NCBI GenBank assembly: GCA_024276575.1
Contig: JAJRWY010000312.1
Span: forward strand, 1,161 to 65,160
Source: Candidatus Binatota bacterium
Lineage (GTDB): Bacteria; Desulfobacterota; Binatia; UBA1149; CAITLU01
DNA length: 64,000 nt
Reading direction: 5' to 3'
Of the stretch, positions 31,398 through 36,168 are shown piece after piece. The position numbers were made by a program, and so were the translations under genes. The number at the start of each line of letters is the position of its first letter. Within the stretch, counting starts at the first letter, position 1. Below the pieces are notes generated by a model. That model saw only the letters and a program-made list of their open reading frames with translations, made no database searches and had not been told where the DNA came from.

Positions 31398-31703
31398 ATG
31401 TGGCCTTTCGACAATAGCTTCTATGAGGAAATATCGGCTCGGTTCGAAACTCTGCTCAAGGACGGTGAGGACGCCGGAAATACCAATGATCTGTCGGCTT
31501 TGCTTGCTCCGGTGGATCCTTTCAACCGTTCACCCTTGTTTACACCGGTCGTGAAAGCTCTGGGCGTCGCTGCGTTGGTAGCAATGACCGGGCTTGCCGC
31601 AGCCGGTTTAGTCGTGGCCTTCGTTGCTTTCCTCGGTCTTTACTTCTTGCTTACCGAAGTATTCGGTTACGAGCTTTCTCTGGCACCGCTGCAACCGATG
31701 TAG
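31398..31703 (+). CDS. Small hypothetical membrane protein (C-terminal TM helix)
   Basis: 101-aa ORF 5 nt after the preceding gene, with a hydrophobic C-terminus ALGVAALVAMTGLAAAGLVVAFVAFLGLYFLL. Confidence 0.45.
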   Translation: MWPFDNSFYEEISARFETLLKDGEDAGNTNDLSALLAPVDPFNRSPLFTPVVKALGVAALVAMTGLAAAGLVVAFVAFLGLYFLLTEVFGYELSLAPLQPM

Positions 31704-32332
31704 ATTGCGTCTTGCCGTACGGCGAGACCGAGTATTAGAGCACAGGCGACGGCTGCCGCATCGCATGCCGCCACCGCGTGCCGCCACTGGCGCAGGTGCT
31801 TGTCGTAGCCACCGGCCTGCCGGCTGCGGTCTGAATAACGCGCGGGGAAATCGAGACCGGATGGTCCGTGATCTTGCGTTCGACGGTGGCTTGGCAAGGC
31901 GCCGTAGTTACGACAATCGCTAAACAGATCAGGAAGCGGTGCCTGTGGATGCACTCCGCAAACGAAACCGCAACCACCGCCATCCGGCTCAAAAGTGTAC
32001 CATACAATCGGTACCGAAGTTTTGCGGGCATGTTCGATTTGGTTCAGATCCGAATGCTCGACTCCCGCTACTATGTAGCAGGCGATAGAAGTGGATGTTT
32101 GTGTAGCTTTGCGACCTCGTCCCCGGAGGCTTTCAATGCCTGGACCATCGCTGCGCGAGGATACGCTGACCCCCGCTGCTCTCAAGTAAAGGGATGCTTG
32201 TTCCACGCCGCGAGGGTGCCCGAGCAGTACCACTGTCGCCGCCAGTAACTTTCCCTGGCCTTCCGCACCGATGCCGGGGATGATGATCTGTCGCGCATAG
32301 CGTTCAATGCTCTCATCATCGAGAGTAGCCAT
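31667..32332 (-). CDS. Degenerate ThiF/MoeB-like (E1-like) protein that retains the N-terminal RYxRQ...GxEGQxKL motif but lacks the GxGxxG loop; possible pseudogene or accessory subunit
   Basis: The N-terminus ERYARQIIIPGIGAEGQGKLLAATVVLLG matches E1 enzymes. It is followed by HPRGVEQASLYLRAAGV instead of GxGxxG...ALYLAGAGV. The downstream sequence is diverged, AT-richer, and has a poor RBS. Confidence 0.4.
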   Translation of the reverse strand: MATLDDESIERYARQIIIPGIGAEGQGKLLAATVVLLGHPRGVEQASLYLRAAGVSVSSRSDGPGIESLRGRGRKATQTSTSIACYIVAGVEHSDLNQIEHARKTSVPIVWYTFEPDGGGCGFVCGVHPQAPLPDLFSDCRNYGALPSHRRTQDHGPSGLDFPARYSDRSRQAGGYDKHLRQWRHAVAACDAAAVACALILGLAVRQDAIYIGCSGARESS

Positions 32333-32359: not shown

Positions 32360-32599
32360 TCATTCTATGACGTTCTTCTCTATCGGCTCGACAGTGACGC
32401 CTTGCTCGGCGATCCATCGTACGGCCCGGTCAATCTCGTCTTGCTCACCTTCGAGTTCGAGAGCCATGATGCCCACATGCTCAGAAATCGAAGCACCGCG
32501 TATATTGGTGACCACGCGGAACTTGTGTCCGACGTGGTAAACGATCGGCTCCTTTATCTTCTCTTGGCTGTAGGTCAGGTAGAAACGTTGAAGTGTCAT
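32360..32599 (-). CDS. Stand-alone NIL-domain protein (MetN C-terminal-like ferredoxin-fold domain)
   Basis: 79 aa with the TNIRGASISEHVGIMALELEG motif characteristic of NIL domains. The ATG overlaps the cysM-like stop (ATGA) with a GAGGAG SD. Confidence 0.6.
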   Translation of the reverse strand: MTLQRFYLTYSQEKIKEPIVYHVGHKFRVVTNIRGASISEHVGIMALELEGEQDEIDRAVRWIAEQGVTVEPIEKNVIE

Positions 32600-33579
32600 T
32601 GGTTCTCCTCCGCGGCGGCGAGTTCATGGCGGTCGCGCCAGCCGGTCCACAGATTCGTAGATAAGTAGCGGTCGCCAAAATCGGGTAGCACTACCACCAC
32701 GCACCCGGATTGCAACTCCGCAGCCACTTCCAGTGCTGCGACTACCGCGGCACCGGAGGACTGTCCGACCAGCAGACCTTCTTTGGCGGCCAACTCGTAA
32801 ACCATCTCGTAAGCGGCATCGGTAGCCACACCCACCTTGCGGTCGAAGCCGGATTCGTCGTAAATACCCGGCACGATCGAGCTGCCCATGTGCTTCAAGC
32901 CTTCTATCCCGTGGAAGGCGTCGTCGGGCTCCACGGCTATTATTTCGACCTCAGGCTTGCGCGATCTCAAGTAGCGGCCGCAGCCCATTACGGTTCCGCT
33001 GGTACCGATCGTGGCGAGAAAGTGAGAGACGCGGCCGGCAGTTTGCTCCCAGATCTCGGGTCCTGTGGTCAGGAAGTGGGCCTCCGGATTGGCCGGGTTG
33101 TAGTACTGGTCGGGTTTGAAGTACGCGTCGGGATCGGCGTCGAACATCTTTTTGGCCAAGACGATGGAGCCGTCGGACCCTTCCATCGGATCGGACTCGA
33201 CTATTTCGGCGCCGTAAGCCGCAATCACCCGCAATCGTTCGCGTGAGGCGTTGGCGGGTATCACTAATTTTACCGGATATCCCAGCGCAGCGCCGATCAT
33301 CGCCAGCGCGATGCCGGTGTTGCCGGAAGTAGAATCGAGAATGGTTTTGCCGGGGCGTAAGTGTCCGTCTTCCAATCCACGACGCACCATGTTCCAGGCC
33401 GGGCGGTCTTTGACCGAACCGCCGGGGTTGAAGCCCTCGACTTTGGCGTACACTTCTACACCGCCGGCCAAGTGCGGGGTTACACCTCGCAGTTGGAGCA
33501 ACGGTGTGTCGCCGATCAAGTCGAGTATGCCTGTGGCCTCCGCCTCATTAAGGGTCGGCTGTTGGCGAGTCCGGTGCAC
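32596..33579 (-). CDS. cysM: Cysteine synthase-family PLP enzyme (CysK/CysM type; candidate thiocarboxylate-dependent O-phosphoserine sulfhydrylase)
   Basis: ILDLIGDTPLLQL and the PLP-Lys motif KVEGFNPGGSVKDR, plus the glycine-rich TSGNTG loop. The GTG start overlaps the tail of the upstream carrier gene. Confidence 0.85.
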   Translation of the reverse strand: MHRTRQQPTLNEAEATGILDLIGDTPLLQLRGVTPHLAGGVEVYAKVEGFNPGGSVKDRPAWNMVRRGLEDGHLRPGKTILDSTSGNTGIALAMIGAALGYPVKLVIPANASRERLRVIAAYGAEIVESDPMEGSDGSIVLAKKMFDADPDAYFKPDQYYNPANPEAHFLTTGPEIWEQTAGRVSHFLATIGTSGTVMGCGRYLRSRKPEVEIIAVEPDDAFHGIEGLKHMGSSIVPGIYDESGFDRKVGVATDAAYEMVYELAAKEGLLVGQSSGAAVVAALEVAAELQSGCVVVVLPDFGDRYLSTNLWTGWRDRHELAAAEENQ

Positions 33580-33891: not shown

Positions 33892-35184
33892 TCACGAACC
33901 GGTGGCCGGAGAAGCAATCGTGGAAGCCTGATCGCCGCCGGCTGTCTTGCCGGCTTCAAGACGCTCGTAAAGACGGTCGAATTCGTCGAGACGTGCTGCG
34001 ATATCGTGGGTGACCGGAACCGAATCACGAACCGCCTCGAGGGTCTTGTAGCCGTTGCCGGTAATAGAGATGACGATCGACTCATCTCGGGGTATGCGGC
34101 CTTGCTCTATGAGTTTCTTGGTAACCGCCACCGTGGTGCCCCCGGCCGGCTCGGTAAACACACCTTCCGTACGCGCCAGTAGTTTGATTGCTTCCACTAT
34201 TTCTTCGTCGCTAGCTGATTCACCCCATCCTCCGGAATCCCTGACCGCTCCGAGAACGTAATAGCCGTCGGCCGGGTTGCCGATCGCGATCGACTTGGCG
34301 ATGGTATGAGGCTTTACCGGTTCGATAAGGTCGGTTCCCCGGTGAAGGGCGTTGACGACCGGAGCGCAACCGGCGGCTTGCGCGGAGTATATCTTGAATC
34401 CGCTCTGCTCGACCAAGCCTACCCGCTGCAGCTCTTCAAAGGACTTGGCGACTTTGGGCAAGATGGTGCCGCCGGCGGTAGGAACGACGATGTGTTGGGG
34501 GAGCTTCCAGCCGAGTTGTTCGGCCACTTCGAATCCGTAAGTTTTGGCTCCTTCGGTGTAAAAAGGCCGCAGGTTGATGTTTGCGAAAGCCCAGCCGTAC
34601 TTGTCCGCGATCTCGGTGCACAGGCGGTTAACGTCGTCATAATTGCCGGAGATCGCGACCGGGACCGGGTTGTATATGGCCGATCCCACCACCTTGCCTT
34701 GTTCGAGGTTGTCGGGGATGAAGATGAAGCACCGCAGGCCGGCGCGTGCTGCATGGGCGGAAACGGAATTGGCTAGGTTGCCGGTAGAGGCGCATGCGAC
34801 GGTTTCGAAGCCGAACTCGACCGCTTTGGTCAGCGCGACCGAGACTACGCGGTCCTTGTAGGAGAAGGTCGGGTGGTTGACCGAATCGTCTTTTACGTAG
34901 AGTTCCGAGACGCCGAGCACTTCTGCCAAGCGATCGGCTTTGAGCAAGGGAGTAAAACCTGAATACAGGCCGATACGCGGCTCGGACTCCACCGGAAGCA
35001 ACTCGCGATATCTCCACAGGTTGGGTGGCCTCGCTTCAATGGTCTTGCGATCGACCGCAGCCGATATCTTGTCATAGTCGTATTCTACTTCGAGGGGGCC
35101 AAAGCAGTATTCACAGACGTGGTAGGGCTTGAGTTCGTAAGCCTCGCCACATTCACGGCACTTGAGGCCTTTTACAAAAGACAT
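33892..35184 (-). CDS. Threonine synthase-family PLP enzyme with an N-terminal zinc ribbon (ThrC, or a MetM-like O-phosphohomoserine-dependent homocysteine synthase)
   Basis: N-terminus CRECGE...CEYCFG and the PLP-Lys motif HPTFSYKDR. AAGGAGAT SD before the ATG at 35182-35184. The track ORF's 47-aa N-terminal extension was rejected. Confidence 0.8.
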   Translation of the reverse strand: MSFVKGLKCRECGEAYELKPYHVCEYCFGPLEVEYDYDKISAAVDRKTIEARPPNLWRYRELLPVESEPRIGLYSGFTPLLKADRLAEVLGVSELYVKDDSVNHPTFSYKDRVVSVALTKAVEFGFETVACASTGNLANSVSAHAARAGLRCFIFIPDNLEQGKVVGSAIYNPVPVAISGNYDDVNRLCTEIADKYGWAFANINLRPFYTEGAKTYGFEVAEQLGWKLPQHIVVPTAGGTILPKVAKSFEELQRVGLVEQSGFKIYSAQAAGCAPVVNALHRGTDLIEPVKPHTIAKSIAIGNPADGYYVLGAVRDSGGWGESASDEEIVEAIKLLARTEGVFTEPAGGTTVAVTKKLIEQGRIPRDESIVISITGNGYKTLEAVRDSVPVTHDIAARLDEFDRLYERLEAGKTAGGDQASTIASPATGS

Positions 35185-35198
35185 GGTAGTTATCTCCT

Positions 35199-35957
35199 TC
35201 AGCGGTCGATGCCGGGCGCTGCAGCGGCGGGCTCGTAACCGCGGGGTCGTGAACGGGTTTCCCCCGAGCGGGAGCATCGCGGGCAAGCGGGATCCCTGGG
35301 GAAATATACATGGCGCCAACGGCACCCTGACAATTCATAGATATTCATGCGGCCGGGACACAGGCTTTTGTCTCCACCAAGGTAACGAAGCGCGTCTTGC
35401 GCTTGTGCGGTTCCCACCAAGCCGGCCACTGGTGCGAGAATGCCCATAGCTGAACAGCCGCCGTCGGCTTCCTGCGGGTGGTCGTCGGGGAAAGCGCATG
35501 CGAGGCAGGCCGACACGCCCGGCACCACGGTCATCCATTGGCCGGTGGTTCTGATCACACCGCCGTAACAGAAAGCGGTGCCGGTCGAGACTGCAACGGC
35601 GTTTATCATGAATTTCGTGGCCGGGTCGTCACAAGCGTCGATCACGAAATCATGAGAGGAAACGAGGCTCTCGGCGTTGCCGGTGTTCAACGTATCTTCG
35701 ATGGGACGAATTTCAGTGGTAACAGGGCCGCCGGCGGATGCGGCTAGAGCCTTACGCGCGGCCTCGGCCTTGGGTGCTCCGACGTCGCTGTCGCCGAACA
35801 AGACCTGCCGCTGCAGGTTCGAAAGCTCGATGCGGTCGGGGTCGATAATCGTGAGTTTGGCAACTCCGGCGCCCACGAGCATGCGCGCGGCAGCGCAACC
35901 GAGGGCGCCGACGCCCACCAACAGAACCGAATCTTTTGTTTGCTGCTGCAAGTACAA
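35199..35957 (-). CDS. ThiF/MoeB/MoeZ-type E1-like sulfur-carrier-protein adenylyltransferase
   Basis: VLLVGVGALGCAAARMLVGAGV (GxGxxG), DPDRIELSNLQRQ, and zinc motifs CxxC...CxxC. Only a TTG start at 35955-35957 is available, and it abuts the riboswitch terminator U-tract. Confidence 0.8.
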   Translation of the reverse strand: MYLQQQTKDSVLLVGVGALGCAAARMLVGAGVAKLTIIDPDRIELSNLQRQVLFGDSDVGAPKAEAARKALAASAGGPVTTEIRPIEDTLNTGNAESLVSSHDFVIDACDDPATKFMINAVAVSTGTAFCYGGVIRTTGQWMTVVPGVSACLACAFPDDHPQEADGGCSAMGILAPVAGLVGTAQAQDALRYLGGDKSLCPGRMNIYELSGCRWRHVYFPRDPACPRCSRSGETRSRPRGYEPAAAAPGIDR

Positions 35958-35989
35958 AAAAACCTCTTCCAGGCGGGATAAGGAAGAGG
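35956..35989 (-). terminator. Intrinsic terminator hairpin forming the expression platform of the SAM-I riboswitch
   Basis: On the minus strand, CCUCUUCC-UUAUCCCGCCU-GGAAGAGG followed by UUUUUUU. The 3' stem arm GGAAGAGG doubles as a putative SD for the thiF-like TTG. Confidence 0.7.
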
Positions 35990-36011: not shown

Positions 36012-36168
36012 TCTCCTTATCTTTCACCCTCTTTGCATTTGCGTGAACTCGATTACGCGCTCACCGCAACGCTAAGGTGCGGGACTTAGCACCTGCCGCC
36101 CGCTTGCGCAGGCCGGTTGCTGTGGCTTCACAGGGCCCATTCCCTCCGCCACTCTGAATAAGGAACGG
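36012..36168 (-). promoter_or_regulatory. SAM-I (S-box) riboswitch aptamer
   Basis: The minus-strand RNA reads UUCCUUAUUCAGAGUGGCGGAGGGAAUGGGCCCUGUGAAGCCACAGCAACC...CAGGUGCUAAGUCCCGCA...GAAAGAUAAGGAGAGG. This matches the S-box consensus CUUAUCAAGAGNGGYGGAGGGAYUGGCCCNAUGAARCCCRGCAACC...GGUGCYAAUUCCNGC...GAGAUAAG, including P1 pairing CUUAU/AUAAG. Confidence 0.8.

Follow-up and report, generated by a model that had tools for sequence, protein, structure and literature searches.

A degenerate E1-like protein encoded together with a truncated E1 in a sulfur-carrier operon of a Candidatus Binatota bacterium

The 64,000-nucleotide stretch of contig JAJRWY010000312.1 analysed here (the window) comes from a Candidatus Binatota bacterium and contains a minus-strand operon that starts with a SAM-I (S-adenosylmethionine) riboswitch and the gene for an E1 enzyme of the ThiF/MoeB type and ends with an open reading frame (ORF) for an E1-like protein, which we call sE1 (Table 1). 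Two pyridoxal phosphate (PLP) enzymes, a sulfur carrier and a NIL-domain protein are encoded in between. Canonical ThiF and MoeB are homodimers, in which each protomer extends its N-terminal helix into the ATP site of the other. In the operon, helix and ATP site are found on different polypeptides: sE1 has kept the helix and lost the catalytic motifs, and the E1 has kept the catalytic motifs and lacks the helix. sE1 is predicted to be catalytically dead and to resemble an inactive adenylation domain (IAD).

Table 1. Features of the operon in order of transcription (positions in the window; E, expectation value)
Feature	Position	Strand	Basis
SAM-I (S-box) riboswitch aptamer	36014..36164	-	RF00162, 75.8 bits (gathering threshold 44.4), E 5.6e-18
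Riboswitch terminator	35956..35989	-	CCUCUUCC (35989-35982) pairs with GGAAGAGG (35970-35963), followed by U7 (35962-35956)
Active E1 (ThiF/MoeB type)	35199..35957	-	Pfam ThiF E 1.9e-60; TTG start
Threonine-synthase-like (ThrC-like) PLP enzyme with N-terminal Cys4 ribbon	33892..35184	-	Pfam and NCBIfam matches
ThiS/MoaD/SAMP1-like sulfur carrier, 112 aa	33516..33854	-	Pfam ThiS E 2.7e-18; NF041918 SAMP1
CysM-type PLP cysteine synthase	32596..33579	-	TIGR01138 cysM E 3.6e-108; Pfam PALP
Stand-alone NIL-domain protein, 79 aa	32360..32599	-	Pfam NIL E 6e-15
sE1, predicted catalytically dead mini-E1 (IAD-like subunit), 221 aa	31667..32332	-	Profiles, alignment, model

The last gene of the operon and its family

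The sE1 frame is intact and opens with ATG. Its N-terminal part of about 56 residues, beginning MATLDDESIERYARQIIIPGIGAEGQGKLLAATVVLLG, had been described as canonical for ThiF and MoeB in the original prediction, and the profile searches agree: residues 3-56 match the N-termini of the NCBIfam models for MoeB, MoeZ, ThiF and UbaA (best E 3.8e-9, for MoeB), and a profile of the sE1 family matches the N-termini of Uba4, ThiF and MoeB in the PDB with E values from 1e-14 to 8e-10. At the level of sequence this resemblance is far beyond chance. The helix pair that precedes strand beta1 in canonical E1s and carries the motif RYxRQ...GxxGQ is present as RYARQ (R11, Y12, R14 and Q15) and GAEGQ.

The catalytic motifs are gone, as had also been predicted for the GxGxxG loop and the zinc-binding CxxC pairs. 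The P-loop site reads GHPRGVEQA, in line with a family consensus of G-x-p-R-G-x-x-Q-A. The alignment shows no SNLxRQ, Lys or DxxD counterpart for the ATP and Mg contacts (the equivalents of MoeB R73, K86 and D130), and no CxxC pair is present either in the sE1 of the window or in the short-form family. The Pfam ThiF profile (PF00899) scores sE1 with 11.1 bits, below its gathering cut-off of 28.1 bits. In sequence terms sE1 is a divergent derivative of the ThiF/MoeB/E1 proteins and not a Pfam-level member of them.

The description of sE1 as a protein that keeps only the N-terminal helix turned out to be too narrow. An AlphaFold2 model built on the family alignment (predicted local distance difference test, pLDDT, 77.7; predicted template modelling score, pTM, 0.74) has a Rossmann-like beta-alpha-beta core. 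The top Foldseek matches of this model are ThiF, MoeB, PaaA, Uba4 and MccB, and the inactive subunits SAE1 and APPBP1 are also listed. BilD is another of the fold matches, and weaker ones include the E1-like heterocyclases TruD and LynD. The superposition with the E1 adenylation fold covers approximately 147 residues. Going by the matches and the superposition, the whole of sE1 is a stripped-down E1 adenylation domain, with the RYxRQ/GxxGQ helices retained along with the first beta-alpha-beta unit and, at the C-terminal end, the long helix.

A database search with sE1 returned 20 homologues of 153-188 amino acids with 35-48% identity. Their alignment contains 17 invariant residues (R11, Y12, R14, Q15, I16, G22, G25, Q26, G38, G42, A46, L50, A52, G54, W111, G126 and A193), all of which are retained in the window protein. 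The C-terminal helix carries a conserved motif, HDAAACDAAA. Its cysteine, C190, is kept by nearly all close relatives; more distant members and the fusion proteins described below have not conserved it. Searching 1.84 billion representatives with the sE1 profile yielded 47 at E<=1e-30 and approximately 85-100 full-length members. Almost all of the short forms have no Pfam domain recorded and are named hypothetical by their sources. Beyond them lies a continuum of longer proteins (180-260 aa), in which RYxRQ and GxxGQ are kept and the P-loop is degenerate; some of these, for instance P0131, P0111 and P0116, have retained the CxxC zinc motifs.

The main difference between the window protein and its relatives consists of two lineage-specific insertions at residues ~60-82 and ~146-182, which are of low confidence or disordered in the model. 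These insertions, the absence of a Shine-Dalgarno motif from the 25 nucleotides upstream (the missing ribosome binding site had been noted before), the low GC content at third codon positions (GC3) and the loss of all catalytic motifs could be taken as signs that an E1 duplicate is decaying here or has become a pseudogene; decay of a duplicate was one of the readings first offered. Against this stand the intact frame with all 17 invariant residues, a fold that is modelled confidently outside the insertions, and dozens of diverged orthologues that occupy the same operon position in metagenome-assembled genomes (MAGs) labelled Binatia, Myxococcales, Deltaproteobacteria, Proteobacteria and Limnocylindrales. 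Decay is thus a highly improbable explanation for this gene. The original prediction had further named assignment to an unrelated family, or an intact and conserved different protein, as observations that would speak against it; sE1 is indeed intact and conserved, and it is clearly E1-derived.

The base composition was examined as a sign of foreign origin or decay and was rejected as such, since the overall GC content is ordinary and only GC3 is lower. The gene had been called AT-richer than its surroundings, which is weak as a statement on GC content (0.587, where the window as a whole has 0.600 and the NIL gene 0.521) and applies to GC3 (0.563, and 0.35 in the first insertion, compared with 0.64-0.71 for the other genes of the operon). 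A possible reason for the low GC3 is that the copy of this lineage is weakly expressed or under relaxed codon selection.

The partner E1 and the riboswitch in front of it

The E1 begins just ahead of beta1 and lacks the N-terminal RYxRQ/GxxGQ helices; accordingly, its match to the Pfam ThiF profile begins at profile position 20. Its residue 5 aligns with residue 27 of MoeB and with residues 24-26 of ThiF, and its residue 10 aligns with residue 19 of SAE2 as compared to residues 34-36 of Uba4, so that the N-termini of the E1 and of SAE2 are similarly short. The P-loop, D39/D41, N47, R50, Q51, K63, D107/D110 and the zinc-motif cysteines C151, C154 and C225 are invariant in the partner E1 family, and both CxxC pairs are intact.

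It had been suggested before that the genuine E1 starts at a TTG and has no clean version of the N-terminal segment, and this is borne out. An in-frame TGA is located upstream of the gene, and the terminator of the riboswitch abuts the start codon, showing that the loss of the helix is real and not an artefact of annotation. The 3' arm of the terminator doubles as the Shine-Dalgarno sequence of the E1 gene, and its U-tract runs into and overlaps the TTG, leaving no room for the helix. A peptide reading EEVFLY upstream of the E1 was considered as a remnant of the coding segment and rejected, because it corresponds to the terminator 3' arm, the U-tract and the TTG start. A frameshift or a wrongly called start that would hide the helix was likewise rejected, based on in-frame stops and on the regions upstream of the partner E1s at 15 loci, which were independently translated back to the preceding stop codon: RYxRQ occurs in none of the 15, and 10-25 non-conserved residues precede beta1.

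The loss extends to the surrounding clade. The partner E1s of two further loci, L048 and L052, lack RYxRQ as well, and in a comparison of the N-termini of the 120 best E1 homologues, all of the approximately 90 nearest clusters (at least 44% identity) are without RYxRQ/GxxGQ. In homologues with 43% identity or less, RYxRQ or a motif very similar to it (RYxRH, RYxRN) is found some 27 residues ahead of the P-loop, and these proteins often have a rhodanese domain as well. An hhalign comparison of the two families found that they overlap only in the beta1-loop-helix unit (sE1 31-56 and E1 8-34; 26 columns, E 0.031), a result that serves to show complementarity and not to map residues. In terms of sequence, residues 1-30 of sE1 joined to the E1 in effect rebuild a canonical ThiF/MoeB protein.

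Judged from its aptamer and terminator, the SAM-I riboswitch controls the operon. The same element is present ahead of the truncated E1 in eight of ten related loci (L001, L005, L010, L016, L023, L042, L053 and L054); none was detected at the gathering threshold in L048 and L052.

Gene neighbourhoods and natural fusions

The related loci of the true family share the gene order E1, ThrC-like, ThiS-like, CysM, NIL, sE1. They come from MAGs labelled Myxococcales, Candidatus Binatia, Deltaproteobacteria and Proteobacteria. E1 and sE1 were found together in all loci in which both positions are visible, L053 included. In L048 the last operon position is taken by P0131, a longer dead paralogue (235 aa) that retains the zinc motifs. 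The NIL gene lies directly upstream of sE1 in nearly all of these operons. The operon of L053 (7001-9710) is reduced to E1-ThiS-CysM-sE1, with an sE1 of 187 aa and without the ThrC-like and NIL genes, showing that sE1 is tied to the module of E1 and carrier rather than to NIL. Overall, it is very probable that sE1 is a conserved, E1-derived protein that is functionally tied to the truncated E1.

In another group of bacteria the two parts are joined in one chain. P0169 (469 aa) and approximately 75 further clusters combine a truncated E1, a TusA domain (PF01206) and a C-terminal domain of about 135 residues that resembles sE1. Wherever the source names the organism, these tri-domain clusters belong to Planctomycetota. 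The E1 part starts directly at beta1, without the N-terminal helix, and the C-terminal domain opens with LxRFARQxVLPEVGExGQRRL, a segment with the invariant residues R338 and Q339. Aligned by hhalign with residues 2-59 of sE1, this domain gave an E value of 1.6e-20 and 47% identity. The AlphaFold2 model of the fusion (pLDDT 88.3, pTM 0.90) indicates a confidently packed three-domain body. The fusions are annotated merely as 'ThiF family adenylyltransferase'. Their loci L049 and L050 (6001-7407) are located outside of sulfur-amino-acid operons, with T2SSF, UvrB and UvrC among the neighbours.

The remaining genes of the operon point to a sulfur pathway. The carrier, the CysM-type synthase and the ThrC-like enzyme, which is a candidate homocysteine synthase of the thiocarboxylate-dependent MetM type, would fit a thiocarboxylate-dependent route to cysteine and homocysteine akin to CysO/CysM and MetO/MetM. 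The window carrier ends in ...VPAIAGG followed by a tail of 21 residues (0-12 residues in the relatives at L001-L042), so that the GG would have to be exposed by proteolysis. Neither a rhodanese domain nor a protease of the JAMM/Mec type is encoded in the operon. The Cys4 ribbon of the ThrC-like protein (CRECGEAYELKPYHVCEYC) is located at residues ~8-32 counted from the ATG and gives weak matches to the Pfam families NinF and zf-ChsH2. At L052 (6669-11128) and L054 (11159-14801) the operon extends into genes for a radical-SAM protein, a Na/sulfate symporter and ATP sulfurylase, which links the E1/sE1 module to sulfate assimilation.

The flanking regions differ between the loci. Genes for crcB and a DUF190 protein follow sE1 in L001 (8556-9328), L002 and L004 and are missing from the window. 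There, the 3' end of a convergent ORF for 101 aa without Pfam match (31398-31703, plus strand) overlaps the 3' end of sE1 by 37 nucleotides. The relatives have an unannotated gene of similar size (about 103 aa) at the corresponding spot. The neighbourhood of L053 (PolA, an extracytoplasmic function sigma factor and ArsA) is unchanged despite its Limnocylindrales label, which may be a binning or annotation issue.

A putative asymmetric E1 and its place among known systems

In sE1 a degenerate nucleotide site is combined with a retained arginine-finger motif (R14/Q15, invariant in the family, and R338/Q339 in the fusions), and the helix that carries this motif is missing from the cognate active subunit in the 15 partner E1s, in those of L048 and L052 and in the approximately 90 nearest clusters. 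This distribution mirrors the division of labour between the IADs and the active adenylation domains (AADs) of asymmetric E1s and leads us to propose, from sequence and with a probability of roughly 60%, that E1 and sE1 form a heterodimeric, asymmetric E1 for the sulfur carrier, with the N-terminal helix and the arginine finger supplied in trans by the dead sE1. From the observations above we infer that the two proteins associate physically, that sE1 complements the ATP site in trans and what the downstream enzymes do in metabolism. The two roles of a homodimeric ThiF or MoeB would be split between two genes, making sE1 an obligate partner of the active E1. The heterodimer would have one active site: the E1 would bring the P-loop, the Arg, Lys and Asp contacts to ATP and the zinc site, and sE1 would give the partner surface of the dimer together with R14. 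The complex would adenylate the ThiS-like carrier, whose thiocarboxylate would feed CysM for cysteine and the ThrC-like enzyme for homocysteine under control of the SAM riboswitch. The support for a pseudo-symmetric arrangement, with the arginine placed at the gamma-phosphate of the ATP bound by the partner, is indirect and comes from the fusions (model pTM 0.90) and from the co-occurrence of the two genes.

Several points weigh against such a heterodimer. ThiF R11 and MoeB R14 of the N-terminal motif have been described as an arginine finger donated by the neighbouring subunit; in the same work this finger was catalytically non-essential in MoeB, ThiF and Tcd1, and TcdA from E. coli lacks it (PMC13139853, 2026). 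Thus, an E1 without the helix might work alone and the motif of sE1 might serve another role; structure or assembly may be as important for its conservation as catalysis. The short forms of sE1 also lack most of the surface of a full E1 protomer. In addition, the low GC3, the missing Shine-Dalgarno motif and the two disordered insertions render the expression level of the window copy uncertain.

The non-essential finger reported for ThiF and MoeB would also suit an adaptor or scaffold of E1 descent that plays no part in completing the active site of the E1. Such a protein could, for example, be a docking site for a sulfur donor or for one of the other operon products (the ThiS-like carrier, CysM, the ThrC-like enzyme or NIL), comparable to the E1-like docking proteins without ATP site in cyclodehydratases of ribosomally synthesised and post-translationally modified peptides (RiPPs), and TruD and LynD are indeed among the weaker fold matches. 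The position of sE1 close behind the NIL gene and the nearly invariant C190 would fit this role as well. However, C190 is not kept in distant members or in the fusions, sE1 persists next to E1-ThiS-CysM in L053, where NIL and ThrC are absent, and the protein to which it is fused in Planctomycetota is the E1 itself. An adaptor would also leave unexplained why RYxRQ/GxxGQ is invariant and why the partner clade has lost exactly this segment. We consider this role rather unlikely.

It might also be that sE1 is a negative regulator, forming dead heterodimers with E1 and thereby throttling the activation of the sulfur carrier. It is catalytically dead and is predicted to share the dimerisation fold; its gene comes last in the operon and, in the window, has only a weak signal for translation. 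However, E1 homodimers would themselves be without an arginine finger, a constitutive covalent fusion as in Planctomycetota is hard to reconcile with an inhibitor, and the SAM riboswitch already regulates the operon. A regulatory role is therefore very unlikely. Of the inactive regulatory paralogue suggested originally, the inactive paralogue is supported in substance, given the lost motifs, the partner without the segment, the co-occurrence and the fusion; the regulatory part found no support. The third suggestion, a complementing N-terminal fragment, likewise finds support in substance, on the strength of the partner E1, the co-occurrence and the fusion, and missed that sE1 is a whole reduced E1-fold domain and more than a helix.

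By sequence, both genes are closest to ThiF, MoeB and MoeZ, which share with the proposed E1:sE1 complex the chemistry of carrier adenylation (ThiS/MoaD type) and the arginine finger acting in trans. They differ in that each protomer has the N-terminal helix and a complete active site, so that the dimer has two, whereas here these elements are split over two polypeptides. The functional analogues of the proposed complex are found among the eukaryotic E1s: SAE1-SAE2 for SUMO, NAE1/APPBP1-UBA3 for NEDD8 and the IAD-AAD pseudo-dimer of UBA1, UBA6 and UBA7. SAE1 and NAE1 carry the IAD, SAE2 and NAE2 the AAD (PMC12355090). In human UBA1, Arg57 lies together with Arg515 of the AAD at the gamma-phosphate position. 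Arg57 belongs to the N-terminal part of the chain and, from this numbering, is taken as part of the IAD. In contrast to these proteins, sE1 has only ~150-220 residues and neither FCCH nor four-helix-bundle insertions, a catalytic-cysteine domain and a UFD are missing from the partner E1, no E2 is involved, and the substrate is a sulfur carrier of Cys/Met biosynthesis. The sE1 profile matches SAE1 with an E value of only 0.15-0.19, compared with values down to 1e-14 for Uba4, ThiF and MoeB. This makes sE1 no member of the eukaryotic IAD families but a convergent bacterial derivative, which probably arose independently of them.

Two other systems share features with E1:sE1. Yeast Tcd1 lacks the key arginine for ATP contact and donates the arginine finger Arg59 to the site of Tcd2, which in turn supplies none (PMC13139853). 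Labour is thus shared between two ThiF-family paralogues in this dehydratase for cyclic N6-threonylcarbamoyladenosine (ct6A) too; it differs in being eukaryotic, in having two full-length subunits, in using tRNA t6A as substrate and in having a non-essential arginine finger. In bacteria, the known E1-like proteins (ThiF, MoeB, Cap2) were all described as homodimers as of 2023, with the exception of BilD (PMC10557695). BilD, the Bub E1 of an antiviral ubiquitin-like conjugation system, likewise pairs an inactive with an active adenylation domain in a pseudo-dimer (PMC10557695), but in a single chain with the IAD before the AAD and a CYS domain, and it works with an E2 and a deubiquitinase in defence. 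The Planctomycetota fusions differ from it in their order, AAD-TusA-IAD-like, and in having no CYS domain.

At the level of the pathway, CysO-CysM-Mec-MoeZ of M. tuberculosis and MetO-MetM-Mec-MoeZ of Streptomyces (MetM/MetO described in bioRxiv 10.1101/2024.10.14.618325) likewise combine a ThiS-like carrier, a CysM-type synthase, a ThrC-like (MetM-type) enzyme and an E1. They use a canonical MoeZ with rhodanese domain and the JAMM protease Mec, whereas the window operon has NIL, sE1 and the SAM-I riboswitch instead. In the literature that could be searched we found neither a heteromeric or pseudo-enzyme partner of ThiF or MoeB in sulfur-carrier operons nor the sE1 family, which is no proof of novelty.

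The bacterial sulfur-carrier E1s ThiF, MoeB and MoeZ are the textbook case of symmetric homodimers and are thought to be ancestral to the asymmetric E1s of eukaryotes. It is conceivable, at somewhat less than even odds, that several bacterial phyla independently evolved an asymmetric E1 for primary sulfur-carrier metabolism, with two subunits or with a fused and permuted AAD-TusA-IAD chain, in which the dead subunit has become a minimal IAD of about 150 residues with the essential task of delivering the N-terminal helix and the arginine finger in trans. If so, the series from full-length, zinc-binding dead paralogues (223-255 aa) to forms of 150 aa would record the change from a homodimeric MoeB/ThiF to a heterodimeric E1 step by step, a change that has been postulated to lie at the origin of the eukaryotic E1s. 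This transition would then have occurred in bacteria too, in a widespread and unannotated family. The graded intermediates and the minimal IAD would offer a means of probing the purpose of the inactive half of E1s, with a bearing on the debated essentiality of the arginine finger. For the proteins themselves, a 'hypothetical protein' gains a name and a testable role, and the annotation of the tri-domain proteins of Planctomycetota as 'ThiF family adenylyltransferase' is corrected. In addition, a putative thiocarboxylate Cys/Met operon controlled by a SAM riboswitch is flagged in poorly known lineages labelled Binatia and Myxococcales.

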